64,000 nt of DNA, from the IMG/VR virus record IMGVR_UViG_3300026097_000009, positions 1-64,000 of that record. The stretch is one strand, 5' to 3'. Positions 16,466 through 59,400 of this stretch are shown in pieces. The stretch's first letter is position 1, and each line of letters opens with the position of its first letter. Origin of the DNA: a virus. Under the pieces are notes generated by a model. It saw only the letters and a program-made list of their open reading frames with translations. It was not told the DNA's origin and did not search any database. Made by a program: the position numbers and the translations under genes.

Positions 16466-16470
16466 TTATC

Positions 16471-17818: not shown

Positions 17819-18384
17819 ATCATTTTTATCACGATATAGAAGGATTTATGAACCAACGAAATCGTATCATGTTAGACCTTGTTATCGATAGTTTTCCGGA
17901 TAATGGAACATGGGTCGAGTTAGGGTCTTGGATGGGGAGAAGTACAGCATATTGTGTGGTTGAATTAATTAATTCTAAAAAAATAGGAAAATTTTATTGT
18001 ATCGATACTTGGGAAGGAGGTGATACTCTTGAAGCACATTCGTCGGTTGTATCCGGTAGTGCCCGTGATATTTTTTTGAAAAATATTGATTCTATTCGAA
18101 ATTACGTTACAGATATAAAAAGCTTCAGTGCAAACGCATCAAGTAAATTCGAAGATGAGTCTGTAGATTTTTGTTACGTGGATGCTTTACACACATATGA
18201 AGGTGTAATGTTAGATTTAGAAGCATGGTGGCCTAAGATTCGGCCGGGATGTTATTTCGGAGGCGATGATTATACCAAAGGATGGCCCGGAGTTGGTAAA
18301 GCTGTAAACGATTTTTTCGGAGAGAAAAATATTAAAGTCAGTAAAAGTGGTAGATGTTGGATTGTAAAGAAGCCTGTATTATGA
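17815..18384 (+). CDS. Methyltransferase (Methyltransf_24-like)
   Basis: VELGSWMGRS, IDTW, YVDALHTYE, GGDDY. Confidence 0.85.
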   Translation: MNHFYHDIEGFMNQRNRIMLDLVIDSFPDNGTWVELGSWMGRSTAYCVVELINSKKIGKFYCIDTWEGGDTLEAHSSVVSGSARDIFLKNIDSIRNYVTDIKSFSANASSKFEDESVDFCYVDALHTYEGVMLDLEAWWPKIRPGCYFGGDDYTKGWPGVGKAVNDFFGEKNIKVSKSGRCWIVKKPVL

Positions 18385-18427
18385 ATTATTACAATAGATT
18401 ATGTTGTTGTACAAGTGAGGTATATAG

Positions 18428-19213: not shown

Positions 19214-19766
19214 AAATCAATTATTAGAATTATTACCTAAAGAGAGTACAGGAGCTGAATTAGGCGTATGCGGTGGCGACTACAGTGAAATTATTTTAGA
19301 AATTATTCAGCCTAAGCGATTATATCTAGTGGATATTTGGAGATATATTGATTTAGGTTATCACGATAAACTAATGAGTAACGATAAAAGACAAACTGCA
19401 AGATATAGAGCTGTATATAAAAAATTTGTTCACTATGATGCTGTTAAGATTATCCGTGATTACACTCACGGATTAAAAAGTATAATCGATCCTAAATCTC
19501 TCGATTGGATTTACATAGATGCAGATCACAGTTTTAACGGATGCTATGACGATTTGAAATTAGCAGACGAATTAGTTCACAGCGACGGAGTCATTTTAGG
19601 ACACGATTACGATCCTCGACATCAAGGAACTATGGATGCAGTCGATAAGTTTGTGGAAGAAAACAATTATTTCTTAACATTAACTACTGAAGAATTTAAC
19701 TCTTCGTATTTAATTTGTAGAACAGAAGAACAACATAATACATATTTAAATATGTCTAAAGTATAA
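19206..19766 (+). CDS. Methyltransferase (Methyltransf_24-like)
   Basis: GAELGV..GDYS, VDIW, IYIDADHSF, GHDY. Confidence 0.85.
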   Translation: MNRNQLLELLPKESTGAELGVCGGDYSEIILEIIQPKRLYLVDIWRYIDLGYHDKLMSNDKRQTARYRAVYKKFVHYDAVKIIRDYTHGLKSIIDPKSLDWIYIDADHSFNGCYDDLKLADELVHSDGVILGHDYDPRHQGTMDAVDKFVEENNYFLTLTTEEFNSSYLICRTEEQHNTYLNMSKV

Positions 19767-40929: not shown

Positions 40930-41197
40930 ACAAAGCGAAGCATTCAAAACCGATTATAAAAAATATCAGTCTGATATTTCAAAAATTACAGATAAAAAAC
41001 TGCAAGAAGACTGCACTGATTTGTTGAGACAGTTGAAAAACACAGTAGTTTGGATAGATAACATGCACGAGCAATTGTTTGTTACACATCAAATGCCGTC
41101 GGATGTGTCAGAAGCTCGTCAAAAAATCATCAGCATTAAGAAACAACTAGATACTAGACTGAAAAGTTACCAAAACAAGAAGCGCAGAACACTTTAA
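40913..41197 (+). CDS. Hypothetical helical protein
   Basis: 94-aa ORF overlapping the upstream gene. Confidence 0.6.
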   Translation: MLQKIEQSEAFKTDYKKYQSDISKITDKKLQEDCTDLLRQLKNTVVWIDNMHEQLFVTHQMPSDVSEARQKIISIKKQLDTRLKSYQNKKRRTL

Positions 41198-44100: not shown

Positions 44101-47100
44101 TAGACCAAATTCAATATCTCGCCATGAGGCACTTGCTGGAGCTGTTGCACTTGTCCAACTTTGTCCGCCATTTATAGAGTATGCGGCATCAGTTCCGCCG
44201 GTTTCGAAGGTTACAAAATAAGTTACCCCTCTTAGTGTGCCTGCACCAATTGCTCTCCAGTTTGACGTCGTAGGCAATGTCGATCCTGTCCATGTCTGGC
44301 CTCCATCTGTAGAATATGCGGCAGCCGTAGAATTATTTCTTACTGCAACAAAGACGCCGTCACCGTATGCTACACCGTTCCATGTTCCTGAGCTTGGTAG
44401 TGTGGAAGCAGTCCAGCTAATCCCATCTGTAGAGTATGCGGCTTCGTTTGTATCTCCGACCGCAACAAAATATCCTACTCCATCAACTTCGCCGTATGCC
44501 ATATCTTCCCAAGCACTTGCGCTAGGCATTGTTGATGCTGTCCAGGTTTCTCCGGTAGTACTGTGTGCGGCAACATTAGATCCGCTTTCTACAGCAACGA
44601 ATCTATCTTCACCGTATGCAATTCCTCGCCAGTCGCCGGACACAGTAATAGTGCCGTCGGCACCACTAAATGCTGGTGGAGGATTTGACGATATATCAAT
44701 TAATAAACTGGACCCAGGCACAAGTCCGTGATCGGATTCAAAATCAATTGTTATTGTTGCAATAGCTCCAACATTAAGGGTAGTTCCATTTGTAATAGAA
44801 CCTATTAACGCATCACTTAGGGTTAAAGAACTAAAGAAAGTAATTGAATCTCCTTCGTAAGGTGTTCCGGAAACATCAGCATCGGTAATTGCGCCTTGAT
44901 CTACAGCAGTTACAACTATTATTGCATCGTTTGTTCCAGTTGTACCGCCTAAAGCCGAACCTGGGATTAAAATTTTGTCGCCAGTGTTATATCCAGAACC
45001 ACCATTTTGCACTGAAACAGAATAAGAACCGTCTTGTCTAGTAATTGTAAAGAAAGATCCACCACCGGACGGTGTAACAAGACTGCCTGTTACACCAGTA
45101 TAATCTGCATCACCTGTTACACCTGTGCCACTTAGTACTGTAAAGTTAACAACCGCTCCTGTGCCGAAAGAAACTCCATCAACCCTAATTGTAATATCGT
45201 TATCGGGAGAAGTTCCGCCGAAATCAGTTCCTACAAAAGTTACAACATCACCTTGTGCGTGTCCACTGCCTCCTGCAAATAAAGACACTGTGTAGTTCCC
45301 ACTACCGCCTTCACGATCTACATCAATTCTAAAATTAATGCCAGCTCCGGTAGTTGAATCCTGATTTACATTTGTATATGTTTCGCCGCCTGATATCGAC
45401 GTACCTTCAGTTTCAAAAGAAGTAATTGCGCCGCCTGAATCAATTTCTGTAACTATAATTGTTAGATCGTTAGCGGGTGTTTCACCGCCTAAATTATCCC
45501 CTGTAACTAAAATTCTATCGTTTACAGCATAGTTTTGTCCAATTTTAGAACTGTCTTGGGCATCAAACACAGTGTAAGCACCGGCAGATCTAGAAACATT
45601 GAATGTTCCGTCTTCTCCGATAGGTTGAACGTTAGATCCGCTCACTCCAGTGTTTGTTCCATTACTTCCTGTAAGTGTAGAAGTATATGGACCACTAAAA
45701 TCAACTGTATTACCGTCAATCGCAGTAATAAACAGAGCATCGCCCTCGCTGTTATCAACGGCCATTCCGGCTGATAATCCTGAAGAATCAGTTAACGTAA
45801 TAGATGTTGAATCTTCTGCAACATCATCTGCAATGTTTAATTCAGTTCCGTTGGCACCTGCATCTGCAACACCTGTTATGCTAGATCCTGGTACTAAAGA
45901 ACTAGACCCTGAAATAGGCGATCCGATTGTCGGAGCAGTTCCTGTAAATGCTATAAATGTAGAATCTGTAGGGGTGTTAAATCTAGATGTAACTGAAGCA
46001 TTTGTACCATTCGATTCTACCGAAAACGTAGGAGTTCCTATAGAGCTTCCTGTATAGAACGCTCCCTTCCTAATTTGTGTGAAGTTTGTTACTAATTCTT
46101 CGCCGTTAGATTGTCCTACTTTAGCCTGAGAATAGTAGGTAAATGTGGTGGCTGTAGGAACTCTAAACACTAGAAAACTACCTTCAGCTCTACCAAAACC
46201 TCTAATATTATTACTTAGGCCTTTCACTGTAATCGGATCACCTACTGAGAAGTTGTGAGGACCCGGGGTAGTTACTGTAATTAAAGAAGAACCGAAATCA
46301 CCTGAATTTGACGATGCGTCTGTGATCACTGAAGAAATATCAATATCTGTTCCTGGTACTTCGTATATGGACGGATAACTTCTCTGTAATGCAATCGCTT
46401 GCCACTTAGTAGGCTGTAACCCGTATTCAAAGTCAGCGTCAAGCATAGCTTGCGGAGTAGCGACACGCATACGTTCGATAGCGTCTGTTCCAAAGTCCCA
46501 CGGTCTGATAGTTTGATATTCTTCTTCTGAAAATACCTGAATGCTGTCGCTGGCGCTCATCGAGCTTGTATCATATTCTAGATAGATCGATGTAACACCA
46601 TCAGTAGCTTGCGAATATGTAGGCCAATCTAGATCTCTGATGTATTCTCCGGTACTATCTCTACCTTGCTTTATAACAAACGAGCCGCCGGCGGTTGTAT
46701 CTGAAAAATTATATATTATGTTGTTTGTATCGGTATTGGTAATCAGCAATATTTCATTACTGTTAAATTTACCTAAAACTTTTATTGTGCTTACACCAAA
46801 CTCTTTAGCCGGTACTTCATCATCGCCGTTTGTCATTACATTTGTTAAAATACCAACTAATGCGGTAATTCTTGCGGCGGCACCTGTTTCTGCATTGTTA
46901 TCTAAAGTTTGTTGTACACTGTCAGTCTGCCCAAATGTAGGTGCGCTGGTATTAGTAAAAATATAAGTGTTAATTAAACTATTGATATAGTTTTGTCCAG
47001 CAACATCTTCAGCAGGACTATCGCCTAACTGGCTAACTCCGTTGCGCCAAAAATAACTTGAAAGATTTCTAGTTTCGATGTTCCCGCCGTATCTCAAGTC

Positions 47101-47334
47101 GTGTGCGTAAGCATCGACAGCATATCCTGCGTCTCTTCTGCAGTCTGCTTCGCTGTACAAAAATCCATTAAAAGGAGAATTACCTTCAGATATTTCGTTA
47201 TTAATAAATGCTACAAGTTGATCTTGTATAAAGGTTTTGTTAGCTGTTAGTAAAGCATATGCATTTGGGTATAAGTTTGCGCTTCTACTTATTCCTGGAT
47301 GAAAAACATAATCTTTTATAATCTTTTTTGCCAT
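41194..47334 (-). CDS. Giant virion structural protein (fibre/baseplate appendage) with beta-propeller repeats
   Basis: 2046 aa, G/S/T-rich; CRRDAGY..DLRYGGN helical module; repeated W..(I/V)AYG.G.FVAV...YS.DG..W blades at about 43820-44645. Confidence 0.75.
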   Translation of the reverse strand: MAKKIIKDYVFHPGISRSANLYPNAYALLTANKTFIQDQLVAFINNEISEGNSPFNGFLYSEADCRRDAGYAVDAYAHDLRYGGNIETRNLSSYFWRNGVSQLGDSPAEDVAGQNYINSLINTYIFTNTSAPTFGQTDSVQQTLDNNAETGAAARITALVGILTNVMTNGDDEVPAKEFGVSTIKVLGKFNSNEILLITNTDTNNIIYNFSDTTAGGSFVIKQGRDSTGEYIRDLDWPTYSQATDGVTSIYLEYDTSSMSASDSIQVFSEEEYQTIRPWDFGTDAIERMRVATPQAMLDADFEYGLQPTKWQAIALQRSYPSIYEVPGTDIDISSVITDASSNSGDFGSSLITVTTPGPHNFSVGDPITVKGLSNNIRGFGRAEGSFLVFRVPTATTFTYYSQAKVGQSNGEELVTNFTQIRKGAFYTGSSIGTPTFSVESNGTNASVTSRFNTPTDSTFIAFTGTAPTIGSPISGSSSLVPGSSITGVADAGANGTELNIADDVAEDSTSITLTDSSGLSAGMAVDNSEGDALFITAIDGNTVDFSGPYTSTLTGSNGTNTGVSGSNVQPIGEDGTFNVSRSAGAYTVFDAQDSSKIGQNYAVNDRILVTGDNLGGETPANDLTIIVTEIDSGGAITSFETEGTSISGGETYTNVNQDSTTGAGINFRIDVDREGGSGNYTVSLFAGGSGHAQGDVVTFVGTDFGGTSPDNDITIRVDGVSFGTGAVVNFTVLSGTGVTGDADYTGVTGSLVTPSGGGSFFTITRQDGSYSVSVQNGGSGYNTGDKILIPGSALGGTTGTNDAIIVVTAVDQGAITDADVSGTPYEGDSITFFSSLTLSDALIGSITNGTTLNVGAIATITIDFESDHGLVPGSSLLIDISSNPPPAFSGADGTITVSGDWRGIAYGEDRFVAVESGSNVAAHSTTGETWTASTMPSASAWEDMAYGEVDGVGYFVAVGDTNEAAYSTDGISWTASTLPSSGTWNGVAYGDGVFVAVRNNSTAAAYSTDGGQTWTGSTLPTTSNWRAIGAGTLRGVTYFVTFETGGTDAAYSINGGQSWTSATAPASASWRDIEFGLDRFVAVAEGTATSGYSTDGINWTTGSIGTSANWNSVAFDGTNFVAVARGSTNAATTFDGITWSVESMESSSGWDKIAFGTPSGENTFVAVSNTDATQIITLASANHELASGPFYVSQIPGPTEIRYTARTTGIIDTNTDMTGVVYSRPDTFFTHRPFDGGVQLGTGGPAHGAQAVRQSKKYIRYQSGKGIMYTTGALFAPNYNLLSATAESTAANSLLTITTDDTNHNAQVGGVIVISGISTGGYNGEYTIESIVDERSFRVRSSTPVGALTASLGPEATMSVKNWHGATVRTGPFDDQNGIFFQFDGIKMAVVKRSSTFQLAGTIAVNTDSNSVVGTDTRFQDQLKVGDPIVIRGMSHTVTSITDQQNMTISPDFRGAVNVSGAKIALTQDEVIPQEEWNLDKLDGNGPSGYNLDPTKMQMIGVQYTWYAAGFIEFMLRGADGKFIIFHRIRNSNNRTEAYMRTANLPVRYDVKNEGARDALRLSIESGDTTLELFNGYYFPTNGGTIMIDNELISYTTRSGNTLSGLTRSANLSNFAGGSNRTYSAGDAVSHSAGAGVILVSTTVTPVISHWGSALLTDGLFDDDRGYLFSYSANGISVTTTRETAFLIRLAPSVSNAIVGDLGERELVNRAQLLLDSLEITSDGTAGDDSPIRGGIVIEGILNPQNYPINPADIGWGGLSGLAQGGQPSFAQIAGGGSVDWNGGASLTTATATVSDDIDTGFVYTRTGLFNDRFSPVPLNYADYVSAGPILVGAQIFSQNPNAFTGSGGDTYVVTRVEDNGVDSVQVYYQDQFGGTTANNQTNASTELKFVFSTYEGITNRLLFTQASWVASGATVGTSVAASDTNWPAGTAVSNVNELQLGGTVFYEVTFSQTSVASISASDTVTFEFGNPAYAQPGETVFSFIAVPGERATLTLDKLKELTNTTIGGRGTFPNGPDVLAINVYKVSGDAVNANIVLKWSEAQA

Positions 47335-47335: not shown

Positions 47336-47989
47336 TTATGCTCCGAATGCTATACTAAACGCTGAAATTCTAGTGTCGACATAATCTTTTCTCGTTGCGT
47401 CAGATGTTTGTGTTGGTTGATTATTAATAGTAATACTGTCCGATGTTAACGTGTTTACTTCAACTGTATCGGCTGCAATTCTTGCACCAATATCTGCGTT
47501 TCCTGTAATACTTAAATTTCCAGTTCCTATAATTTCTCCTTGAACCGAAAGCTCTCCTGCACTATCGCCTGGCCCTACATTCAAGGAAGTAAAACTTGCG
47601 GCTCTAGGAACAGCAAGTCCAATTTCGATATTATCAATCTTACCAATATTAGAACTACTAGAAATATTAACAACACCGTCTACTACTGAAAAATAAGGTG
47701 TTGATCCTTCACTGATTGTTAAATCGCCATCAATATCTAAAAAATCCAGTGTGCCTACTCTGCGTAAGTTACTACCTGTAATACCATCACCTAAGGAAAT
47801 AGTGGTAGATTCTCCGCCTTCAACTAATTGGGTTCCTTTAATTATGATGTTGTCTACTCTTAAAACACTTTCGTCAGCACCCGAGTCTATGACTAATGAT
47901 GCGAGAGAAACATTTCCTTCTTCGTCTACATTAAAACCCGGACTTTCAAATCCAAATTTAGATTGAAACGCCTTGTAGTTTACTGGCAC
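47336..47989 (-). CDS. Virion structural / fibre-associated protein
   Basis: GTG start after AGGAG; late motif at 48016-48011; C-terminal DATRKDYVD fibre motif. Confidence 0.65.
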   Translation of the reverse strand: MPVNYKAFQSKFGFESPGFNVDEEGNVSLASLVIDSGADESVLRVDNIIIKGTQLVEGGESTTISLGDGITGSNLRRVGTLDFLDIDGDLTISEGSTPYFSVVDGVVNISSSSNIGKIDNIEIGLAVPRAASFTSLNVGPGDSAGELSVQGEIIGTGNLSITGNADIGARIAADTVEVNTLTSDSITINNQPTQTSDATRKDYVDTRISAFSIAFGA

Positions 47990-48032: not shown

Positions 48033-48467
48033 TCAAGATCGTGTTGGATTATTTATAGTTTCGTAGTATGTGGCGCTAAAAATAGCCCTTGCACCGTCTA
48101 ATAATGTACTGTTGTCGTATGTGCTTCCGTCTGGGCTTTCGGCAGGATTTATAATTACATTTACATTACTGTTGTCAACGGTTGCTGTAACATCGATAAG
48201 ATTTTCTGAAAGTGTGAGAGACCCATAAACTATAACATTTGCTTCACTCGGACCTGCTAACACCGAACATTTTAATAGTTGTTTTCTTGCGTTTGAAATA
48301 TCAACCACAATAGTATAGTCGGCAGCCATAAATTCGCCAACATACCATTTATCTAGGATTGTGTTTGATTCAACAGGAACCCAAGGACCTTTGTAAGAAA
48401 AGTTTACACCGTTTTGTAATCTAAGGGTTTTATTAAAACCACGAAAAAAATACTTTGAAAAATCCAT
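48033..48467 (-). CDS. Putative virion structural protein
   Basis: 144-aa beta-rich ORF with TAAATA motifs at 48496-48487. Confidence 0.55.
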   Translation of the reverse strand: MDFSKYFFRGFNKTLRLQNGVNFSYKGPWVPVESNTILDKWYVGEFMAADYTIVVDISNARKQLLKCSVLAGPSEANVIVYGSLTLSENLIDVTATVDNSNVNVIINPAESPDGSTYDNSTLLDGARAIFSATYYETINNPTRS

Positions 48468-48493: not shown

Positions 48494-49087
48494 TTAATTT
48501 TTAATGTTTTCGATTTTTGTTTTAAAAGCAACGGTTGTGCGTAAACCCTTGAATGTTTTGTTGGGCGGAAGACCGTGATGTTCTATACTACCTTGAAAGA
48601 ACGCAACTCTTCCAGGTTTTGGTAAAATCTTTTTAATTCCTGATTTTAAATGCAGAATAGTTTCACCTCCCCAGGCGTCATGCCATTCTCGATTTGCATA
48701 GTATAATATTGTTATACTATCTTCAGTAGGATGATCAGTATGTGGAATAGTATCATGAATATATTGTTGCCCATTGACCATAATTTCGTGACACTTTACG
48801 TCATATTTAAGATTATTAATTAGTACCTTGTAAAACATTTTCCAACAGGTGTCAGTGTGTATATGTGATACCGCTGGAAAAATCTGTTGTTTTAGACATG
48901 GAGTTTCATTAGTGATGTTATCTTCGAAATAAGTTGTATGCCCCCAATTCCAACCATAAGAGTTATGAATAGTGTCGTGAACATGATCCACAAACCAATC
49001 AGGAAACAGATTATCAAGAACTAACAGTTTGTCTTGATAAGGATTAAAATCGTTAATCTTATCTGTTTCCTCTTGGGTAGATATCAT
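48494..49087 (-). CDS. 2OG-Fe(II) oxygenase (prolyl-hydroxylase-like)
   Basis: HTD, LYYAN.EW...WGGET, PGRVAFF...HHG, RTTVAFK. Confidence 0.88.
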   Translation of the reverse strand: MISTQEETDKINDFNPYQDKLLVLDNLFPDWFVDHVHDTIHNSYGWNWGHTTYFEDNITNETPCLKQQIFPAVSHIHTDTCWKMFYKVLINNLKYDVKCHEIMVNGQQYIHDTIPHTDHPTEDSITILYYANREWHDAWGGETILHLKSGIKKILPKPGRVAFFQGSIEHHGLPPNKTFKGLRTTVAFKTKIENIKN

Positions 49088-50877
49088 CAGTTTTTAACAG
49101 TAATTAATTTACCATATTCAGGTAAGAACAGATATTCAATATCCGAATTTACCAGTGTTCTAACAGCATCGTCAAGTGTTTCTACGAGAGGTTCGCCTCC
49201 TAGATTAAACGAAGTATTAAACACAATCGGTACACCGGTTTGCTTATAAAACTCTGAAATTAGAGAATGATAGTGTTCGTTCTGTTCAGGAGTTACTGTT
49301 TGAATTCGACAGGTTCCATCTACATGGATAATACTAGGAATTTTTTCAGCGATCCCTGGCTGGCATTTTACTGCGTACATCATATACGGTGAGTCTTCCA
49401 TTCCTCTTAGATCGAACCAATCATGCACATGTTCAGCAAGAATTGACCCTGCAAACGGACGGAAGTATTCACGACGTTTAATCATGTTAACAAAATCTTT
49501 ACCGTCTTCAAATGTTGGATCGAATAGGATACTTCTGTTACCTAACGCCCTCGGACCTGCTTCTGAACTTCCTTGGAATAGAGATACAATATTTTTCTCT
49601 TTCATTAATGCTACAACGTTTTCATTATTTGCATCGGAAATTTCTACACCGTATTTTTCTACCACGCTAGAAATATCAGAGTCTGTATAATTGTATCGTG
49701 GACCATGATACAAATCTTTCAAAGGACGAACAGTCATATCGTCTTCAATACCGTGCCAGAACATCATTGCCGCACCTATTGCTGTTCCTGCATCATTAGA
49801 TACTGGCTCTACAAACAGCTCGATTCCTTCGTCCTTTAACTCTTCAAGATAATAATAATTAGCCACACAGTTTAAGCCGTATCCACCGGACAGCACAACT
49901 TGCTTCTTTCCTGTTTTTTCAACAGCCATTCTAATAACTTTTAATACCTGTTCTTGGGTTGCTTTCTGACATGCGTATGCCATATCACGACGATTCTGTT
50001 CTTTTGTTAAATCGTCACTTTCAGGAATATCATTTATAAACTCGAACACATTTTGATTTACAAATGCGCCTTGTGGGTAATTAGGAATAAACAGGTCACG
50101 GTTTGCTCTATCACCGTAAGCAGTTGGTCTAAAGAACTCCGGAATTTTATCATTCTTTTCACCGTATGGAAATAATCCCATTGTTTTTCCTGCTTCGATT
50201 GCTGGAAATCCGCAGTATTCTGTAACGGCTTCGTATACTTTTGTAATGCCGCATGTATCAGAGAATACACATTCATGCGTATAACCGTCTTCTGCATAAT
50301 ATGAGCTGTCGAAATCTGGAACATAAGAAGATACAATAGGATCTCGTGCTCCTAGATGCTTCCAGACAGTTCTAAAATCTGCAGGATACGAACAATCGAT
50401 GATACTTTCTGTTTCGAAGAAAGTTAAATGACTGTCTCCATATGAAATAGGAACAAATGTTCCTGCGCCATCTACAACAACAGCTACCGCATCTTCAAAA
50501 CCCGAACGATAAAACGCACAGGCCGCGTGTAGCTTATGGTGCATGAATGCTAAATCCACAACCTGTGGATGATTTAGGCCAATATGAGGTTCGATTAGTC
50601 CTACTTTTCTTGCAAGTGCTGTATACACATCGTCAGGAGAGTAATCAATTTTTCCTGCGCTGCCTAGTTCAGTTGTGTGGGCAATAACTAGATAGTCAAT
50701 TTTATCTGTATACTCTTTTATTTTAAGCATAGAAGCAAGAGGACCGCCATCATATTTCTGACGGCTAAATCTTTCTTCTTCTGTGGCAAAGACTAACTCG
50801 CCATCCTTTAATAAGCATACGCCGGAGTTATGGCCTCTAGCAATACCAGCTACCCATGTTGATTTTTTATCACTCAT
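49087..50877 (-). CDS. Carbamoyltransferase, NodU/CmcH/TobZ family
   Basis: GHNSG, EEERFSRQK, HHKLHA, VDGAG, GKTMGL, GGYGLNCVAN, DAGTAIGA, GPRALGNRSIL, KRREYFRPFA, HVDGTCRIQTV, NTSFN. Confidence 0.95.
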   Translation of the reverse strand: MSDKKSTWVAGIARGHNSGVCLLKDGELVFATEEERFSRQKYDGGPLASMLKIKEYTDKIDYLVIAHTTELGSAGKIDYSPDDVYTALARKVGLIEPHIGLNHPQVVDLAFMHHKLHAACAFYRSGFEDAVAVVVDGAGTFVPISYGDSHLTFFETESIIDCSYPADFRTVWKHLGARDPIVSSYVPDFDSSYYAEDGYTHECVFSDTCGITKVYEAVTEYCGFPAIEAGKTMGLFPYGEKNDKIPEFFRPTAYGDRANRDLFIPNYPQGAFVNQNVFEFINDIPESDDLTKEQNRRDMAYACQKATQEQVLKVIRMAVEKTGKKQVVLSGGYGLNCVANYYYLEELKDEGIELFVEPVSNDAGTAIGAAMMFWHGIEDDMTVRPLKDLYHGPRYNYTDSDISSVVEKYGVEISDANNENVVALMKEKNIVSLFQGSSEAGPRALGNRSILFDPTFEDGKDFVNMIKRREYFRPFAGSILAEHVHDWFDLRGMEDSPYMMYAVKCQPGIAEKIPSIIHVDGTCRIQTVTPEQNEHYHSLISEFYKQTGVPIVFNTSFNLGGEPLVETLDDAVRTLVNSDIEYLFLPEYGKLITVKN

Positions 50878-51818
50878 TCTGTCACCTTGGTTGATTCTGT
50901 AATATGTGTAATTATGTGATCTACAATGTCGTCTGTCATGGTCATGATATTCTCCATTTTTCGATCTACACGCTCGTCTATGGTAATTCTAATTGGACTA
51001 TATTCTCTATCAATTTCTCCCAAATCCATAATTGTAATAAAATCACAATCTGGATAGGATACATTTATAGGATAAGTTGATCCTGTAATCACGGTTGCAT
51101 TTTTTTCCATAGAATATGCTAAGTGTTGCCCTACACTATCGCATCCTAAAAAATGATCAGCATGCTTAATAATTGCTCCCCACTGTCTTAGTGGAACATT
51201 TTCCGGAAATGCAACTTCATCTTTTAATTTTTCATCGGTGAGATCTACCTTAAATTCTGACATTACAACAATGCCAAATCCTTCTTTCTGTAACCTTTTA
51301 ATAATTTGCTTGAGATTTCTAAGCTCGATACTTCTAGCAGTTCTATCAATTAGAGTGTCATCGACTATTTCAATTCCTCTACCAAAAGGCTGTATAACAA
51401 CGACCTTGTCTTTCTTGGTTCTAGATTTAACTTCGTTGATTACCTGTCTTCCAAAAAGCAATTCATCTTTTGAAAGATTTAAGGTCGGTGCTGGAAGATC
51501 TCTAACACCTTTATTATTAATTTCTAAATCAAATGCTTGAGATAAACTGCATTGTTGATTGTAATATTCCCATATGCGATATGGCTCCGTGGAAATAATA
51601 TCCATATTGACAAGTTTGTCTTGGAAAATATTCTTGTGCCATGCATCATACACTTTGTCGTCAAGTGTTGGATGCCCTTTAAAAATATCAGATCCGCCTT
51701 CGCATACGATTATAAAATCGTCGGTAACTTCTTCTTGGTATTTTTCAAATGCTGGTATAGAACAGATCATTCTTCCTGCTCCACCGTTGATAAAAAATGC
51801 TTTAGGTCTTGTTGTCAT
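50874..51818 (-). CDS. GT-B glycosyltransferase, GT9/heptosyltransferase-like
   Basis: GGAGRMICSIPA, VVIQPFG, LRQWGAIIKHADHFLGCDSVGQHLA. Start moved to ATG 51818. Confidence 0.75.
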   Translation of the reverse strand: MTTRPKAFFINGGAGRMICSIPAFEKYQEEVTDDFIIVCEGGSDIFKGHPTLDDKVYDAWHKNIFQDKLVNMDIISTEPYRIWEYYNQQCSLSQAFDLEINNKGVRDLPAPTLNLSKDELLFGRQVINEVKSRTKKDKVVVIQPFGRGIEIVDDTLIDRTARSIELRNLKQIIKRLQKEGFGIVVMSEFKVDLTDEKLKDEVAFPENVPLRQWGAIIKHADHFLGCDSVGQHLAYSMEKNATVITGSTYPINVSYPDCDFITIMDLGEIDREYSPIRITIDERVDRKMENIMTMTDDIVDHIITHITESTKVTE

Positions 51819-51896
51819 GATGTTCCTGCTCTTGGTTACATTAAGTATAAAACTAATTATACAAAAATGCAACCGCGAGTAGGAAAAAAGAGTGTA

Positions 51897-52562
51897 TTAA
51901 TCTTCTGCGTATTGATAAATGTCAGGATCTGCTTTGAAGTTGATTTTCCAATGCGGAACTGTCTTGGACATTTCCTTAGCACTTCCTGCCCATGCAAGCC
52001 ATTCATTGATTTCTTCAATTAGAGCGTCATCAAACTTATTTTGATTCTTTTCTTTAATTTTAGAAATCTGCTTGATCTTGCGATCTAAATTTTCATGAAA
52101 TTCTGATTCGCTCATATGATAATTAGCAAATGGTGGACGCATATAAGTCTGCGATCCTTTATCATAATACAAGAAACCATCATGAATATGGCCTAATACG
52201 CCTGTTTCATCTGGATAATCGTATACGAATGTATCGCCGTTTGGCAATTTTTCTTCGTAGTTTTCGATATCACCGTGACTGTATGTGTTTGTTAACCAGG
52301 CCGCTTCCCAGGTATGTGTTTCAGCATCTAAAATAATTTGATAATGATCCACTAAGTTTGTTTTCTTCATACTTTCTAGTTGTGCAACACCATTAGCATC
52401 GTCGGAAGAAAAATCTACGCACCAAACTCTGTGATTTTCATCGCTGGCTATTCTAAGAAGAAGATATCTCGGACCATTATACATCGCCTGATATCCTTTG
52501 CCTTCATTGGTTGTTTTTCCGTACGGTACATCAGGTACTGGAATAAAAAATTCTTTTATCAT
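51897..52562 (-). CDS. Hypothetical protein, possibly a fibre assembly chaperone
   Basis: Directly follows the Cys-rich triplet; C-terminal helical EW..W...P.W segment is reminiscent of Tfa-type chaperones. Confidence 0.45.
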   Translation of the reverse strand: MIKEFFIPVPDVPYGKTTNEGKGYQAMYNGPRYLLLRIASDENHRVWCVDFSSDDANGVAQLESMKKTNLVDHYQIILDAETHTWEAAWLTNTYSHGDIENYEEKLPNGDTFVYDYPDETGVLGHIHDGFLYYDKGSQTYMRPPFANYHMSESEFHENLDRKIKQISKIKEKNQNKFDDALIEEINEWLAWAGSAKEMSKTVPHWKINFKADPDIYQYAED

Positions 52563-53581
52563 CTTGTTCTATCCTTATAAAATGTTATTCTAACTGCGCC
52601 TAAGCCGCCTCTTGCACCTGTGCTACGTGAGTTATCGCATGGTGCTGCCGGAAATCCGCCGACACCGTAAGGCATAATGTTAATACAACCTAACATCTGG
52701 TTATTACCGCAAGCTTTAACACTGTTCCAACAGCTAAATTTAGCAGGTGTTCCTCTAGTCGGCGAACGAGCGGCCGCGTTCAACGAATTTGTAAACTGTG
52801 TAAAAAAGTTTCCGGTCCAATGTTGGAAATCGTTATTGTTTTCACCAGAGAATGTAACAACAGCACCTTCTTCTGCAAAAATTCCAGGTGGAATAGCAAT
52901 ATGATGATGGTGCTGACAAACACAGTCTGGCAAGCATCCTCTAAACGAAGAACAACTGAAGCCGCCACGACAGTTGACATCTCCTCCGTATGCTTCTGCA
53001 CAGCAACCTACAATTTCTCTGTTGCCGTCGCCTACGATTCCTTCACCGTAATTGCATATCAGTCCGCAACATGTACAGCATGATGTTCCACAATGGCCGC
53101 ATTTAATGAAGCAACAATACGGAGAGCCGCCGTCCATACAATATGACACGCCGCCGCGTCCACCTTGAGCACACATACATCCATCTTCGCCTGCACCTGC
53201 TCTGGTTCTTCCAAACCAACATAACTGCGTAGGCTCTGAACAACCTCTGAAGCACAATGCATCGGCATTGCTACAGCTACGTCCTAAAACACCGCAAACA
53301 ACACAGCCGCTTATAACACAGATACATCTCTTTGAGTATGCGCCTGGATTACCCGGAAGACCAGTACCGCAACAACATTGCATTGCACCAGAGCCGCCAG
53401 CTCCCCACATTTCAATTTTTGCTACACCGGTGTCTGGAGCTTCCCAGCAAAAGAAATTCCCTGCTGATGGTGAATACATGTTACCATCTGCGAATGCATA
53501 GATTCTGCCTTCATCGAGATTAGATTCGTTGAGTTCGAGTTGGTCTGTTCTTGCTTTTAATAAATCACTTAAATTCGCCAT
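52559..53581 (-). CDS. Cysteine/glycine-rich putative fibre-tip protein, paralogue 3
   Basis: IEMWGAGGSG..CCC..PGNPGAY, GGDVNC, GGLGAVRI; about 35 Cys in 340 aa. Confidence 0.7.
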   Translation of the reverse strand: MANLSDLLKARTDQLELNESNLDEGRIYAFADGNMYSPSAGNFFCWEAPDTGVAKIEMWGAGGSGAMQCCCGTGLPGNPGAYSKRCICVISGCVVCGVLGRSCSNADALCFRGCSEPTQLCWFGRTRAGAGEDGCMCAQGGRGGVSYCMDGGSPYCCFIKCGHCGTSCCTCCGLICNYGEGIVGDGNREIVGCCAEAYGGDVNCRGGFSCSSFRGCLPDCVCQHHHHIAIPPGIFAEEGAVVTFSGENNNDFQHWTGNFFTQFTNSLNAAARSPTRGTPAKFSCWNSVKACGNNQMLGCINIMPYGVGGFPAAPCDNSRSTGARGGLGAVRITFYKDRTR

Positions 53582-53590
53582 TTTGTTTCC

Positions 53591-54682
53591 TTAACTATAC
53601 GCACAGTATGAATTAGTGCCTATATACTTAATTCTAACAGCACCTTGACCGCCACGGCCGCCGTGGTCTCTAACGTTCGGACATGGCTGAGCTGGGAATC
53701 CCGGAACCCCATAAGGTACATACGGAATACAGCCTTCAGCTTCATAACATCCACAAGCCCTGCTGTGTCCCCAGCATTCATTATAAATGTGTCCGCTTGG
53801 TTGTCTACTCATATCGTCCAATGCATTGTTGTGTGGTACTAATGCACCGCCTGAATGCCCGCCTTCTCGGCTGTCGCTTTGTGGAGTATAAGAAAACACA
53901 ACACCTTCGTCACTAAACACACCTGCTGAAGTTGCAACATGGTGCTGGAAGTGACAAACACAACGTCCCTTACATCCATAAAATGATGTACAACTGAAAT
54001 GTCCTGTGCAGTTCACGTCTCCGCCATATGCACATGCACAATCTGAGCCTCGACAAATGTTACAGACTAATACACACCCTTGAGAAGCTCCGAGAGGTGT
54101 CAGACAAAGTCCTCTGCCACCATAACAACACTGTATTGTGTAATCATTTTGACAGATTGTGATACCGGCTCTGCCACCCTTTGCACATATACAGCCAGCA
54201 GTTGCACCAACTTCACAACATAGTCCGAAACTTGGGTCGTAATCGTGTCTGCACATTGGACCGTAACCTACATTTTTACCACAATTCATGGGTCTATTAC
54301 CTAGTGCGTGAGGCGCACACCCTGTCCAACAAATACAGGTAGCTTCTGAACAACCTCTAAAACATCTGTTATCTGCATTACCGCAACTTTTTCCAATGAT
54401 ACCGAATACTACATTATCCGGACAAACGCATAAACATTTTTTAACATATGCGCCTGGATTTCCTGGCATGCCCATTGCACAACAACACATACGAGATCCA
54501 GACCCTGAAGCTCCCCATGTTTCTAAAACTATGCATCCGGTTCCTGGTGGTCGCCAGCAAATACCGCACTGAAATCTCGTGTATTCATTACCTTCGGCCC
54601 AAACAAAGATTCTTCCTCGTTCAAGATTTTGTTCACGAACAAGATTTCTTTCACCTAATAATTGAGTTAATCTATTAGCCAT
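53591..54682 (-). CDS. Cysteine/glycine-rich putative fibre-tip protein, paralogue 2
   Basis: Start at ATG 54682 (MANRLTQLL); LETWGASGSG..CCC..PGNPGAY, GGQGAVRI; about 41 Cys. Confidence 0.7.
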   Translation of the reverse strand: MANRLTQLLGERNLVREQNLERGRIFVWAEGNEYTRFQCGICWRPPGTGCIVLETWGASGSGSRMCCCAMGMPGNPGAYVKKCLCVCPDNVVFGIIGKSCGNADNRCFRGCSEATCICWTGCAPHALGNRPMNCGKNVGYGPMCRHDYDPSFGLCCEVGATAGCICAKGGRAGITICQNDYTIQCCYGGRGLCLTPLGASQGCVLVCNICRGSDCACAYGGDVNCTGHFSCTSFYGCKGRCVCHFQHHVATSAGVFSDEGVVFSYTPQSDSREGGHSGGALVPHNNALDDMSRQPSGHIYNECWGHSRACGCYEAEGCIPYVPYGVPGFPAQPCPNVRDHGGRGGQGAVRIKYIGTNSYCAYS

Positions 54683-54692
54683 TCTATAATTC

Positions 54693-55724
54693 CTATGTTT
54701 GTCCGTTACCAATTTGTCCGAGAATTGCACAATTCAAACCGTACATGTTCTCGCCACAATATGTCAATCTAATCAATCCAGGGCCACCACGTCCGCCGTG
54801 ATCTCGCACTCCCGGACATGGCTGAGGTGGTCTGCCGCCGATTCCATAACTGTTATACATTACACAACCGAACGATTCATAACATCCGCAGTGTCTTGAA
54901 GAGTCATAACACTGAACATACGGTGAACCTATGGTTGGACTCGTGCTCGCAACATTTTGTGAATAGTGTATTTGATTCTGGCCTCCGCCACTCCAGTTTT
55001 GGAATCCGTTGTTTTCTTCGTGCGGTATAGTTAAATGTGTTCCTGATTTTCCGTAGATATTCGCGGCAACAGCAACATGACTAACTTGGCAGCAAATATT
55101 ATTCGCTTCGCATCCTCTAAAGCTTACACAACTAGGACATCCGCAACAGCCGACATCGCCTCCTAGTCCGCAAGGAACATGCATTCCTGCACACATATTA
55201 CACACAATCGCACAATTATCATTGTCTAATCTTGTGTGACAAAAACCTGCGTTTGCATAACAACAATATGCTGAATTTCCTGACGTTGCACAGAATGCAA
55301 TACCTGCTTTTCCGCCTTGAGCGCACATCCATCCTGCTTCGTAACCACAGCGATCTCGACCACACCAGCATAGCACGGTAGGTATACTACAACCACTGTC
55401 ACACAATTCATGTGCTCTACAAGCCATTCCTGGACAACCGCAAATAAAGTCTCCGCAGTCTACACAGATTTGCTTTCTTACATATCCGGGTGCGTTTCCA
55501 GGTAAGCCGAAACCACAACAGCACATACGAGATCCGCTTCCTGCCGCTCCCCACATTTCAATAACTAAAGTTCCACGTCCGGGGGCTGGCCAGCAAAATC
55601 TCATATCAGAACGAATACACGCTTCGTTAAGTTCTGGCGCAATTGTGAAAACTCTATTTCTTTCTAGATTAGATTCGTTTCCGTACAATTGTCTTGTTGC
55701 CAATAAATCCGATAGAGATGACAT
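54693..55724 (-). CDS. Cysteine/glycine-rich putative fibre-tip protein, paralogue 1
   Basis: IEMWGAAGSG..CCC..PGNAPGY, GGPGLIRL; about 38 Cys. Confidence 0.7.
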   Translation of the reverse strand: MSSLSDLLATRQLYGNESNLERNRVFTIAPELNEACIRSDMRFCWPAPGRGTLVIEMWGAAGSGSRMCCCGFGLPGNAPGYVRKQICVDCGDFICGCPGMACRAHELCDSGCSIPTVLCWCGRDRCGYEAGWMCAQGGKAGIAFCATSGNSAYCCYANAGFCHTRLDNDNCAIVCNMCAGMHVPCGLGGDVGCCGCPSCVSFRGCEANNICCQVSHVAVAANIYGKSGTHLTIPHEENNGFQNWSGGGQNQIHYSQNVASTSPTIGSPYVQCYDSSRHCGCYESFGCVMYNSYGIGGRPPQPCPGVRDHGGRGGPGLIRLTYCGENMYGLNCAILGQIGNGQT

Positions 55725-55742: not shown

Positions 55743-56069
55743 TTATAAACCGCTGAATACCCAACCGTATGTAGCACCAGAATAAACAAACGTTATTGCC
55801 GCATTGTCTAGATTCAAAATTAAATCTTCTGAATAATTTTGAATTTTTTCACTGTTTCTACCTACTGTAACATTGTTGACACTAAACTGTCCTGCAACAT
55901 CAATTATTTGTAGTGTATCGCCTACAGTAGGTGACACAGGTAAATTAATTGTGAATGCAGAAGAAGAAGTGTCTGCAAAAATTCTTTCATTTGCAGATGC
56001 ATCATATGCACTTGTTACAGTTACGTTGTTAGCTCCTGATGTACCAAATGTTGCTACTGATCTTCCCAT
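55743..56069 (-). CDS. Small fibre-associated protein (T4 gp34 N-terminal repeat-like)
   Basis: ADTSSSAFTINLP.SP.VGD..IID..F..NNVTV.RN..KI...LVY-like...GW. Confidence 0.65.
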   Translation of the reverse strand: MGRSVATFGTSGANNVTVTSAYDASANERIFADTSSSAFTINLPVSPTVGDTLQIIDVAGQFSVNNVTVGRNSEKIQNYSEDLILNLDNAAITFVYSGATYGWVFSGL

Positions 56070-56083: not shown

Positions 56084-56404
56084 TTAAACTGTTGAAGTCT
56101 CGATTCCAAACGCCGATGCCGAAACATTGGCTGCCGAGGAACGAACTATAATTCTATCGCCTGCACTAAGCATAATGCCTGTACGTTCTAACACACCGTA
56201 AGCTTCTATTTCTACATCGTATTCAATAAATTCCGATAAAGCCGGTGTGTCTGACTCCGCTAACGCAATTCTTACCTTTGTAGGATAACTGTTTCTGTTA
56301 CACAGGTTTATGCTGGCCATCGTGAAAATACTCGGCGGTGTTTGGTATACCGTAGTATTTGTTGAAGCATTTAATGCTGCCTGTCCTAAAAGTCCTGTTG
56401 CCAT
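56084..56404 (-). CDS. Small virion structural protein
   Basis: TTVY..P, NLCNR, IEYD, LERTGI.L..GD.I.V beta-sandwich pattern. Confidence 0.6.
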   Translation of the reverse strand: MATGLLGQAALNASTNTTVYQTPPSIFTMASINLCNRNSYPTKVRIALAESDTPALSEFIEYDVEIEAYGVLERTGIMLSAGDRIIVRSSAANVSASAFGIETSTV

Positions 56405-56411: not shown

Positions 56412-59400
56412 TTATCCTCCTAACAAGAAGTAGTTTAATGTTACTGCATCGCCGTCGATGCCACCTACGAAGTTCATCTTAGTATTTATAAAGATTTGCG
56501 TTTCTGTAGTCGTAGTAATTTCTTGCCCAGCAATGAATATAACACCTGCCGTTAGCGTATTTACGTTCAAACTGGAGCCACCGCCACCGATTTGGCTTGT
56601 AATATATGCTTTAATAGCTCGCTGTGTTGGAATAACGCTGTCTGAATCTGCTGTAAAGAACGGATCTGTACTAAATTCAGTGACTGTTGCGCCTGAGCCG
56701 CCTAGTGCTACTGATCCCAAACTTAATTCATTCAGTCCTGCAATATTAAATGCATCAGCATTCAATGTTGCAACACCGGTTGACTGTTCAACGTTAAACA
56801 ATCCGCCAACTCGGAAGTTACCGTCTTGGTCCGTACTTGTGAAGAACACACGACCTCCGCCTGAATCAACCGTTTCGTTTGCAGGAATTGGATCTTGCAA
56901 AGGCAATCCTGGATAGTTTGTCTGTGTTTGGTTACCAGTACCTATATCTAAGAAATCGTGACCTGTTAAACGTACCTGCGAATAGCGTCTTCTAAATGTA
57001 GTCGAAGTCTCGTGTTCAGGTGCTTCTGCTACTCCAACTTCAGGAGATACCTGAATTGTTGCAGTATAAGGTGCCGAGGTTCCTACTAGATTTCTAATAG
57101 TTACTACTCGATAATAGATATCGTCAATTCCGCCTATTCTTAAATTCGAACCTTCTAACGGCACATTTGTTAAATTCTTAACATCAATAAATGTACCTGT
57201 CTGATAGTTATCAGCAAATCCGTCTCCAGTAATTACAGCTGACGCCGCAGAATAGTTAGCTCCTCTATTAGTAAACGTAGGCTGTGCTAATACGCCATTA
57301 CCTATTCTAACAGTATGAGTTGCATCGGCTCCAATGTTGTTTGGATCTGTAATTGTCATAGTCGGAACTGTTGTATAATTACTTCCTGGTTCATGAATCT
57401 TAATTTGTGTTATAAGTTCGTCTGAAACAGATGCTCTTGCTCTAGGTGTCGCGCCAGCAAAGAACTGTACTGCATTTCTTCCGCCTGCACTTAGCGCAAT
57501 AAATCCGCTATTGCTGTAAGGCCCGCCAAATGCTACGGCACTCCATAGTTTTCCAACAGTAGCGAACATTGAACCGGTGCCATCTGTTAACTGAATCGGT
57601 GTGCCACCTTGTGTTGCACTCACAGTAAATGTAGTTGAACTAGGAATACTTTCGATAAACAATCTTGTATCAGTATCTAATCCACCGAACAATTCAGTTC
57701 CTGCAGAATCATTTGGAATAAAGATTGTATCACCGACACTTAATTCTGCAGTGCTGTCAACTGTTAACAGATTTGTATTTGCTTCATAACCCAACACATT
57801 AGCTGTGTTTGTGTTAAATGCAACTGTTACAAATTCGTTATCTACATCGTTGCCGACAATATCTATCCAATTTGCTGTGCTCTGTGTAGTATCAGCTGTC
57901 CAAGTAATACCGTCTTCGCTGATTAATGCATCATTGCTGTTGTATGAAACCGCAACAAACACTCCTCCTGCATAAGATACAGCATTCCAGTTACCGCTTG
58001 GTACAGTTACGCTTGACCACGTTTCGCCACCGTCTGTCGAATATGCAAAGTTTGTAGAAGCTTGGCTAGAATTTCCAGCTACCGCTACAAATTTGCCGTT
58101 ACCGTATGCAACACTACTCCAGTAATCGCTGGCTGGTAGTGTGCTTGCTGTCCAAGATGCGCCGTCATTTGTGCTGTATGCTCCTGCGGTGCTTGCGGAT
58201 GATACTCCTGAAACTGCTACAAATGCACCGTCACCGTATGCAATGCTGGTCCAATCAGCAAATGCAGGTAAGGTGCTTGCAGTCCATGAAGTTCCATTGG
58301 TTGAAAATTCTGAAGTGTTTGTACCTATTTGAACAACTACAAATGTTCCGTTTCCGAAAGCAATATCTGACCAATCTCTGGTGTTATTTAAAACATTCGA
58401 GTTAAACGTCCATGTAACACCATCACTAGAAGTTGCAACATCGTTACTACTGAAATACGGTATTACATAAGTTCCGTTGCCGTAAGCAATAGCTCTTGCA
58501 TCGTCAGAACCTGTAGGAATAGTCCTATTAGTCCAGGTTTTCCCGTCAGGTGAAGTAGCTACTGCAATACTGTTTCCTGCTACAGCAACATATTGATCGT
58601 CAGTTGTACTATAAGTCACCGCGCTCCAGTCTGAAGTCGACGGCAATGTACCTACCTGCCAATCTACAACAGTATCTTTAGATGTTTGCAAGATATCAAT
58701 TTCTTTAACAGTAGCATTTCTCTCTGTCCAAGTTAAACCATCTTGAGACGTAGCGGCTACTTCACTTTCAGCTAACGCTAAGAATACACCGTTGCCGTAT
58801 GCAATTTTTCTCCAATCATCACTGCTTGTAATAGCACTTAGATCTTTTCCTAAGTCTGCCCAGGTTTCTCCGTCGTTACTTACAGCAATTGCTCCATTTT
58901 TATCAGCAATCGCAACAAATATGTTGTTACCGAATGCTAAATCCTGCCAGTTTGAATCTGAACTATCGTTGTTTGCAGGTAATGTAGAAGCAGTCCAGCT
59001 TACACCGTTTGTGCTGTAAGCGGCTTCTGCACTGAAGTTGCCTTCGATTACTACAAATTTACCTAAGCCAAATTCAATTGCTTTTGCACCGCTCGGTAGC
59101 GAACCAGTGTTCCATGTAGTTCCTGCATTTGCGGATACAGCCCTTAGTGTGCTAGAAGAATCACTTTCTGCTATTGCAACTACCAAGTTATTTCCGATAG
59201 CTAAGTCAACCCAATCAGCGGCTTCTCCTAATGATCCGCCAGCAGTCCAATTAACTCCATCTAAACTGTATGCAGTATCTGTACTTTGCTTGGCTACTGC
59301 TACATAGTAACCGATACCACTAACTACACCGTAGGTTACAGCACTCCATTGAACACTTGAAGGCATTCCTGCAATTTCCCAGGTAATACCGTCTTCACTC

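Follow-up and report, generated by a model that had tools for sequence, protein, structure and literature searches.

The window analysed here comprises the first 64 kb of a 154,861-bp IMG/VR virus record (IMGVR_UViG_3300026097_000009), whose completeness is put at 44% by CheckV. On its minus strand, flanked by the genes of two giant fibre-like proteins (2496 and 2046 amino acids, aa), an unbroken co-directional block encodes p106, p108, three cysteine (Cys)-rich short fibre proteins (CysA, CysB and CysC), p221, a glycosyltransferase (GT), a carbamoyltransferase (CT), a 2-oxoglutarate (2OG)-Fe(II) oxygenase, p144 and p217 (Table 1), and the 2496-aa neighbour places this module within the fibre gene block. 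A preliminary description of the stretch, made from its letters alone, had reported three Cys-rich paralogues followed on one strand by a chaperone-like open reading frame (ORF; here p221, 221 aa), a GT, a CT and an oxygenase, and the ORFs are as it described them. It had called the last three genes overlap-coupled, and so they are, GT and CT sharing 4 nt (50874-50877) and CT and oxygenase a single nucleotide (49087); the end of CysC and p221 likewise share 4 nt (52559-52562). The longest ORF of CysB (53591-54730, 379 aa) opens at a GTG at 54730, inside CysA, with a 38-nt overlap, but the ATG at 54682 is probably the real start, as it restores the family N-terminus 'MA.L..LL'. The start of the GT is most likely at 51818.

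Table 1. Genes of the Cys-rich fibre module and of its flanks (window coordinates).
Feature	Coordinates	Strand	Basis or remark
CysA, Cys-rich short fibre, 343 aa, 38 Cys	54693..55724	-	ORF, paralogue comparison, family alignment A1
CysB, Cys-rich short fibre, 363 aa from ATG, 41 Cys	53591..54682	-	N-terminus fits family consensus
CysC, Cys-rich short fibre, 340 aa, 35 Cys	52559..53581	-	Predicted fold with Pam3 gp24-like tumour necrosis factor (TNF)-like and distal domains; phrog_4205 4.5e-19
GT9-fold glycosyltransferase (GT), heptosyltransferase-like, 314 aa from ATG	50874..51818	-	Fold match; phrog_8954 7.8e-138
NodU/CmcH/TobZ-type carbamoyltransferase (CT), 596 aa	49087..50877	-	PF16861, PF02543; phrog_1601 2.5e-165
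2OG-Fe(II) oxygenase, 197 aa	48494..49087	-	PF13640; lineage-specific accessory
p221	51897..52562	-	Position kept in closer relatives and L089; candidate fibre chaperone
p106, small conserved protein opening the module	56084..56404	-	PSSM2_302-like, 43% identity (P-SSM2)
p108, homologue of the C-terminal end of a long tail fibre	55743..56069	-	41% identity to SSSM7_113 residues 1386-1476 (S-SSM7 tail fibre)
p144, conserved downstream neighbour	48033..48467	-	Behind CT in most loci of the window's clade
p217, conserved downstream neighbour	47336..47989	-	Fibre-like composition, 0 Cys
2496-aa giant fibre-like protein, upstream of module	56412..63902	-	CBM_5_12 4.3e-5, below cutoff
2046-aa giant fibre-like protein, downstream of module	41194..47334	-	No Pfam family

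The three Cys-rich proteins are paralogues (43-48% pairwise identity), and with 10.3-11.3% Cys, partly in CC, CCC and CxC motifs, they are the top three of the 107 ORFs of at least 150 aa in the record (median 1.0%, 95th percentile 2.7%). Searches of cultured phages by megablast (with the region) and by tblastn (with CysC) returned no matches because the family is too divergent and compositionally biased, so that profiles and folds were required; nor was there any match to Pfam, including PF21722 (Gly_rich_2), even at an E value of 10. The structure predicted for CysC by AlphaFold2 from 77 homologues (predicted local distance difference test score, pLDDT, 87.4; predicted template-modelling score, pTM, 0.85) has gp24 of phage Pam3 as its top Foldseek match (7ypx; VIA-align Z 14.9, root-mean-square deviation 3.1 Å over 191 residues to 7ypx_A). 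Other fold matches are a Bxb1 tail-tip protein (Z 11.7), the TNF-like and Gly-rich domains of ALK/LTK (Z 8-9) and, in BFVD, proteins of S-CAM3, P-SSM2 and many viruses annotated as 'glycine-rich domain' proteins. Pam3 gp24 is a short trimeric fibre whose N-terminal helix docks on the baseplate and whose Gly-rich distal domain (39% Gly) binds the receptor, and it is folded by the chaperone gp25, encoded beside it (PMC9608196).

Judging from the model, CysA, CysB and CysC are predicted to fold like gp24, with an N-terminal helix, a TNF-like sandwich and a distal domain. They retain the domain-boundary motifs 'WGAGGSG' and 'GG.GAVRI', which they have in common with ordinary Gly-rich fibre domains, but with 15-16% Gly and 10-11% Cys they lack the polyglycine-rich distal lattice of the Pam3 protein. 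They thus appear to be a Cys-rich version of a widespread Gly-rich fibre domain, in which the usual polyglycine-rich distal part would be replaced. The likeness to the Pam3 pair (7ypx, 7yfw) also includes a short fibre gene followed by a small gene for a possible chaperone. In contrast, the Pam3 paper mentions neither cysteine nor disulfides (PMC9608196), the Cys-rich proteins have some 120 extra residues, the window's phage has three tandem paralogues with dedicated GT and CT genes, and p221 has no detectable similarity to gp25. Indeed p221 has no match in Pfam, PHROG, PDB (by profile) or the Atlas, and its C-terminal part alone gives weak matches of the coiled-coil type; that it may be a fibre chaperone is suggested solely by its overlap with the last fibre gene. 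A phmmer search of CysC against 1.84 billion representatives yielded 150 matches, all of them Cys-rich (3.4-12.3%, and at least 5.6% if full-length), and no Cys-poor homologue was detectable by sequence in that search. The most divergent full-length member of the family, P0114, is itself located in the same module (locus L089).

The distribution of the cysteines was analysed in 81 aligned close homologues and in a wider set of 140 ORFs. Approximately 24 columns are Cys in at least 65% of the 81 sequences, and nine of these (70, 71, 137, 148, 172, 176, 284, 291 and 293) are nearly invariant. The remaining cysteines are lineage-specific, with Thr or Ser as the commonest replacement; column 86, for instance, is Thr in 53 of the 81. 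The claim that cysteines lie along predicted β-strands holds for C86 and C88 (strand 82-89) and for C96 (strand 94-98), and the cysteines do vary between homologues. Cys counts show no bias towards even numbers (36 even and 45 odd in the close set; 79 even and 61 odd in the wider one), and presence/absence covariation of Cys columns is weak (best phi 0.64), neither of these measures being decisive if the fibre is a trimer. Cys content is anticorrelated with Ser plus Thr content among the close homologues (r = -0.52) but not in the wider set (r = -0.02). Four Ser/Thr columns (64, 118, 166 and 209) are conserved and never Cys, and could be O-acceptors. Since conserved columns, nine of them near-invariant, fit a structural role better than variable acceptor sites, we read the core of about 24 cysteines in the alignment as structural, engaged in disulfides or metal binding, possibly across chains.

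The GT was assigned by its fold. In its AlphaFold2 model (pLDDT 89.6), the top Foldseek matches all belong to GT9, namely 3tov (Veillonella), TibC (4rap/4rb4), WaaF (1psw), WaaC (2gt1), 6dfe and 2h1f/2h1h, with E values of 5e-10 to 2e-7 and TM scores of 0.45-0.70, other GT-B families following from about E 3e-6. The modelled enzyme is thus clearly GT9 by fold and weakly GT9-like by sequence (TIGR02201, 7.7e-5; weak NCBIfam matches to heptosyltransferase III, RfaQ and Aah/TibC), as the preliminary description had it; a profile search of the PDB sequences gave no GT9 match, the family being found there by fold search alone. Among homologues 69% identical to the GT some carry a precomputed PF01075 assignment, and a distant homologue from Vibrio phage D505 scores 24.5 bits. 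In the C-terminal motif 'GCDSVGQHLA...GSTYP', residues D227, S228, G230, Q231, H232, G246 and T248 are invariant in 28 homologues, and the partial Pfam and NCBIfam alignments span exactly the stretch D-S-G-x-x-H ... G-x-T, which we take to be the GT9 sugar-nucleotide signature. Over 4000 homologues of this GT family are present in the protein collection. A search for fused forms gave one partial fusion, to a pyrroloquinoline quinone (PQQ)-type propeller, which is probably a gene-call artefact and was set aside. Some relatives have a second GT behind the CT, two p221 genes (L043) or a second CT; such variants were seen in L029, L036 and L043, in L050, L051, L068, L074 and L077, and at 12519-13628 of L005.

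Among the enzymes of GT9 fold, TibC/Aah (4rap, 4rb4) offer the closest parallel in arrangement: beyond the GT-B/GT9 fold (TM about 0.6, E 1e-9), their genes adjoin genes for surface adhesin-like proteins, as the GT adjoins the fibres that would be its substrates, the modification is proposed to be cytoplasmic, and ADP-heptose is a likely donor given the heptose genes adjacent to the module in relatives (see below). On the other hand, the putative substrate here is a phage fibre and not a β-helical autotransporter, TibC/Aah have Ser as their target, and their products are not known to be carbamoylated. The preliminary description had also likened the module to a ribosomally synthesized and post-translationally modified peptide (RiPP) cassette, an analogy that proved loose: SunS-like glycocin S-glycosyltransferases are GT2 enzymes of GT-A fold acting on short leader-bearing peptides, whereas here a GT-B/GT9 enzyme stands beside folded putative substrates of 340 aa.

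The CT has both domains of its family above their cutoffs (PF16861, 1.4e-58, and PF02543, 2.2e-29), the Kae1-like Carbam_trans_N scoring 103.4 bits (cutoff 24) and the YrdC-like Carbam_trans_C 197.7 bits (cutoff 27), which bears out the claim of a full NodU/CmcH enzyme and predicts a complete two-domain NodU/CmcH/TobZ-type carbamoyltransferase. The NodU equivalog model is matched at 4e-41 (141 bits), short of its cutoff of 1000, so that by these scores the CT is a member of the family and not a NodU orthologue; matches to HypF models are weak (1.3e-5 and 5.3e-6), far below the NodU-type scores. The oxygenase passes PF13640 (35.8 bits, cutoff 27), in agreement with its earlier identification; an 'HTD' and a later 'EHH' in its translation fit an H-x-D ... 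H iron triad, and an FlmC-family model is matched at 9e-20, below cutoff. The preliminary description had placed it with the two transferases in a substrate-plus-tailoring cassette, of which the unit of fibres, GT and CT stands and the oxygenase does not: among the 80 loci examined below, its orthologue was seen in the window and L078 only, and the corresponding site of S-SSM7 is occupied by another kind of 2OG oxygenase. It is clearly a lineage-specific accessory and not a conserved member of the module. Genes for tryptophan halogenase-like proteins and 2OG oxygenases also lie behind the short fibres of cyanophages with or without the GT (Syn9, L117 18966-22071 and 26301-26906; S-SSM7, L005 14176-15663), and it seems that 'tailoring' enzymes of various kinds tend to accumulate in the cyanophage fibre region.

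With the GT as seed, 80 loci were collected from IMG/VR; their GTs comprise 56 different sequences, the most distant of them 45% identical. ORFs of at least 200 aa and at least 7% Cys were counted as Cys-rich. The co-occurrence of Cys-rich paralogues with GT and CT, a comparison proposed in the preliminary description, is tight. Such ORFs are present within 6 kb of the GT in all 65 loci with at least 3.5 kb of upstream sequence, three of them in 62, and 202 of the 203 Cys-rich ORFs across the loci lie within that distance; the remaining one belongs to an inverted triplet in L037, where it is still adjacent and the module genes stay together despite the inversion. The CT lies behind the GT in 78 of the 80 loci. 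The same gene order is found in cultured S-SSM7 (three fibres, SSSM7_114-116, 28-30 Cys) and P-SSM2 (two, PSSM2_304 and PSSM2_306, 36 Cys), in the P0114 locus and in AG-345 single-cell viruses, one of whose proteins has 73 Cys in 758 aa. The family profile A1, to whose alignment CysA belongs, matches the GT-positive S-SSM7 and P-SSM2 and has no match in seven GT-negative cyanophages (S-SM2, Syn9, S-PM2, P-RSM4, S-SSM5, P-SSM7 and P-HM1); in the GT-negative P-SSM4 there is a marginal match (E 0.004) in a frame with a stop.

That Cys-poor counterparts would lack the enzymes is what Syn9 exhibits. In the same kind of region it has three tandem short fibre genes (gp36, gp38 and gp39), and gp38 resembles the Cys-rich proteins in fold (BFVD E 7.8e-7) and weakly matches the profile at the start of the domain (E 0.0085). 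Unlike CysA, CysB and CysC, which are Cys-rich and accompanied by both enzymes, the Syn9 short fibres are Gly-rich (22-35%) and Cys-poor (0.8-2.5%), and no GT9 or carbamoyltransferase gene lies beside them.

Aeromonas phage HJ05 and some 30 Vibrio podophages encode distant homologues of the GT (27-28% identity). The HJ05 enzyme is encoded directly behind a 559-aa fibre protein with 20 Cys in its last 160 residues; this C-terminal part is weakly Gly_rich_2-like (PF21722 E 0.017), beginning with 'VTLVGGG' and ending with 'GIVEITW'. In Vibrio phage D505 and metagenomic L105 the GT lies directly 5' of a tail-tip fibre gene with a Cys cluster (24 Cys in residues 100-440 and 40 Cys in 680 aa, respectively), and in metagenomic L108 it directly precedes one with 13 Cys in about 200 aa, the remaining neighbours of these four GTs having 0-1% Cys. 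Thus, in three of four contexts the neighbour of the GT is an unusually Cys-rich fibre, the folds of these fibres being different. Profile A1 does not detect the HJ05 and D505 fibres, and the link to them is therefore one of composition and position, not of homology. An IMG/VR scan seeded with the HJ05 GT gave no relatives. The distant GT homologue of L108 (4096-5085, a Logan contig) equals a database protein only if TAG is read as Gln, and this podophage-like contig may use a recoded stop.

In 32 of the 80 loci the GT has, no more than 8 kb away, genes for heptose supply, namely those of an HldE-type kinase/adenylyltransferase, GmhA, GmhB, an epimerase and a small cupin, which are likewise present in S-SSM7, P-SSM2, L089, L102 and L103. 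In the clade of the window they are not adjacent to the module; two complete relatives, G001 and G002, have HldE genes in split form at other sites, and the only sugar-nucleotide context in the window's own record is a cytidylyltransferase-cupin fusion. The small cupin (T4-GC 307; 113-133 aa; S-SSM7, L005 18033-18434; P-SSM2, L006 13349-13705), which stands by the heptose genes in 26 of the 80 loci, goes under the annotation 'cysteine dioxygenase'. It was rejected as a Cys-related clue because it adjoins heptose genes and occurs in S-SM2 (PMC3037559), a phage in which the A1 profile has no match; a role as sugar-nucleotide enzyme is more probable, and the gene seems to be misannotated. As to the product, a 7-O-carbamoyl-heptose (7-O-carbamoyl-HepII) is known from the lipopolysaccharide (LPS) core of Pseudomonas, with WapO as its putative carbamoyltransferase (PMC8005017). 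The Pseudomonas system thus has the same three elements, an ADP-heptose supply, GT9-type transferases and a NodU-family carbamoyltransferase, and O-carbamoyl-heptose is a chemically precedented product. Its acceptor is Kdo-lipid A in the envelope; the phage genes, in contrast, belong to a fibre block, and protein would be what they modify.

We propose, with a probability of about one half, that the block is a late-expressed fibre module whose GT9-like enzyme adds heptose to the fibres encoded beside it and whose CT O-carbamoylates the sugar. ADP-heptose would be made by phage genes, which adjoin the module in many relatives but lie at other genomic sites in the window's clade; in the cytoplasm the GT would transfer heptose or a related sugar to the fibres, much as TibC/Aah act on adhesins encoded by neighbouring genes; and the CT would then modify the fibre-borne sugar, yielding something akin to the Pseudomonas core residue. 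The core of about 24 cysteines would mainly hold the distal domain together, through disulfides or metal once outside the cell, p221 would possibly serve as fibre chaperone, and the 2OG oxygenase would be an optional extra. Several observations weigh against this proposal. The evidence for any modification is indirect. The GT does not reach the gathering threshold of PF01075 (E 0.049, 13.4 bits against 22) and stays far below the cutoff of the TibC/Aah BAHT equivalog TIGR04414 (16.3 bits against 200), which makes its donor and acceptor putative. The window's record, which is partial, shows no full heptose pathway. S-SM2 carries heptose genes (Sullivan, 2010, PMC3037559), and neither the GT nor the Cys-rich family was found in searches of that phage, so that heptose genes can serve other uses. 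Most of the 80 loci come from related cyanophages, so that the synteny may partly reflect descent, and since the module comes and goes as a unit, p106 with it, its joint occurrence alone is no proof that the genes are functionally linked. Lastly, in L106 and L107 a distant GT homologue lies in a cluster of several GTs and a sulfotransferase by fibre genes, where the sole neighbour at all rich in Cys is a lectin-like protein, and that only mildly so.

Heptose and associated genes of large cyanophages have been regarded as 'LPS genes' or 'LPS gene clusters' of unknown function, possibly 'stuffer DNA' (Sullivan, 2010, PMC3037559). Along these lines, GT, CT and heptose genes would remodel the envelope of the infected cell, for example to block superinfection or to stop progeny from re-adsorbing, and their position beside the fibres would be historical. 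The canonical GT9 enzymes WaaC and WaaF among the best fold matches of the GT, the combination of heptosyltransferase and carbamoyltransferase in the Pseudomonas LPS core (PMC8005017) and the heptose genes of S-SM2 (PMC3037559) all agree with such a role. We nevertheless consider it unlikely, since the GT and CT genes sit among the fibre genes, co-directional with them and coupled by their overlap, and were never parted from the Cys-rich fibres in the 65 loci, even after inversion, and since distant GT homologues of podophages again lie between tail-fibre genes with no other glycan genes nearby. Moreover, the LPS of marine Synechococcus is, to our knowledge, devoid of heptose, which would deprive a WaaC-type enzyme of its usual acceptor. 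The strict coupling suggests instead that the cyanophage 'LPS genes' glycosylate the phage's own receptor-binding fibres.

The cysteines themselves might be the acceptors, either of S-linked sugars added by the GT9-like enzyme, which was the reading of the preliminary description, or of S-carbamoylation as by HypF on HypE, so that free thiols would be capped on a structure assembled in a reducing cytoplasm. What GT neighbours have in common is Cys-richness and not one fold, across three fibre architectures (the TNF-like short fibres of cyanophages, the Gly_rich_2-like C-terminal domain of HJ05, and the D505/L105 tail-tip fibres with Ala-rich repeats); the extra cysteines of the window's paralogues stand at positions that are Thr or Ser in relatives; the CT has its weak HypF matches; and the odd Cys counts in 45 of 81 and 61 of 140 sequences mean that not all cysteines are paired within one chain, although inter-chain bonds or metal sites on a trimer axis would give odd counts as well. 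We hold Cys acceptors to be quite improbable all the same, given the conserved columns typical of structural cysteines, the Ser/Thr columns that could take an O-linked sugar, an anticorrelation with Ser/Thr that is not general, and a CT far better matched to NodU-type sugar O-carbamoyltransferases than to HypF. Glycocin S-glycosyltransferases are GT2-type; S-glycosylation in the papers found was that of glycocins, the enzyme here is GT-B/GT9, and we know of no GT9 enzyme that makes S-glycosides. Were the Cys heptosylated or carbamoylated on sulfur, which we think improbable, a thiol-rich receptor-binding domain would enter oxic seawater with a programmed set of blocked versus free or disulfide-bonded Cys; this would be the first S-glycosyltransferase of the GT9 family and the first S-glycosylated virion, or else a HypF/HypE-like S-carbamoylation, would possibly provide a tunable determinant of host range, and would explain why GT9-like genes stand beside Cys-rich fibres of three architectures. 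Finally, the cysteines could be purely structural, in Gly-rich fibre variants stabilized by disulfides or metal, with GT, CT and oxygenase merely sharing a hypervariable fibre region and acting elsewhere, on a small molecule, DNA or another virion protein. The conserved Cys core, a CysC fold predicted with confidence without any ligand, the halogenases and 2OG oxygenases gathered in the fibre region of T4-like cyanophages (Syn9, S-SSM7) and the oxygenase that is so clearly not conserved are all consistent with this, but an adjacency that is strict and universal and that recurs independently in unrelated podophages, together with the translational coupling of GT and CT inside the block, makes it distinctly improbable.

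In the heptosylation and carbamoylation of fibres proposed here, the module would combine known kinds of elements, virion glycosylation, adhesin heptosylation and Gly-rich fibre domains; our literature search found no paper describing a module of Cys-rich fibre, GT and carbamoyltransferase. Glycosylation of virions by phage genes is known from mycobacteriophages (Freeman et al., 2023, PMC10527164, cited in PMC12801897). There, too, as far as the cited account goes, phage GT genes near structural genes modify virion proteins; hosts and GT families differ, and that account speaks of no heptose, carbamoylation or Cys-rich substrates. The targets in mycobacteriophages are reportedly the capsid and the tail tube, not the fibres. 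T4-like cyanophages are among the most abundant marine viruses, and it is through their fibres that Prochlorococcus and Synechococcus cells are singled out for killing. If confirmed, heptosylation and carbamoylation of fibres would join the few known cases of phage virion glycosylation, and a new, Cys-rich version of a widespread Gly-rich fibre domain would be defined. The hypothesis can be tested directly in cultured S-SSM7, P-SSM2, S-CAM1 and S-CAM3.

By protein comparison, S-CAM1, S-CAM3, S-SSM7 and P-SSM2 are also the closest cultured relatives of the window's phage. The two relatives with the same module that are complete or nearly so, G001 (364,554 bp, 100%) and G002 (353,123 bp, 98%), were reached via L016 and L020; at 353-365 kb, they assign the phage to a jumbo lineage, and it is therefore regarded as a member of one related to T4-like cyanophages. 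This clade thus has genomes of about 350-365 kb with structural genes of T4-like cyanophages, cultured Kyanoviridae being far smaller (170-250 kb).

As regards the neighbouring genes, p106 lies upstream of the Cys-rich genes in nearly all loci and, among cultured phages, is confined to GT-positive cyanophages and AcaML1, whose copy bears the annotation tail fibre-like. AcaML1, the sole non-cyanophage with a p106 homologue, has no GT, and the protein downstream is unrelated and Cys-poor, so that this case is uninformative. The motif TATAAATA stands at 56483-56490, 79 nt 5' of p106, and is no commoner than chance across the window; a scan for promoters and terminators gave counts close to chance. 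In L078 and L083, p108 is fused to long proteins, and p144 has no family match in domain-library scans. Both giant flanking proteins contain many 'A.S.DG..WT' repeats resembling Asp-box/BNR propeller repeats.

Further sugar-related genes lie at a distance from the module. At 14336-19766 of the window, on both strands, are genes for a PF03567 sulfotransferase, a GT8, a fusion of cytidylyltransferase and mannose-6-phosphate isomerase-type cupin, two Methyltransf_24 proteins and a GT17, and this island may be a source of the sugar proposed for the fibres, or may elongate it. On a T4-like contig (L106 1282-3662, L107 2010-3669), a diversity-generating retroelement, consisting of bAvd and a reverse transcriptase, stands beside Lcl_C/DUF7936 fibre genes and is directly followed by a 2OG oxygenase, three GT32 enzymes, a GT9-like enzyme, a sulfotransferase and an APS kinase.

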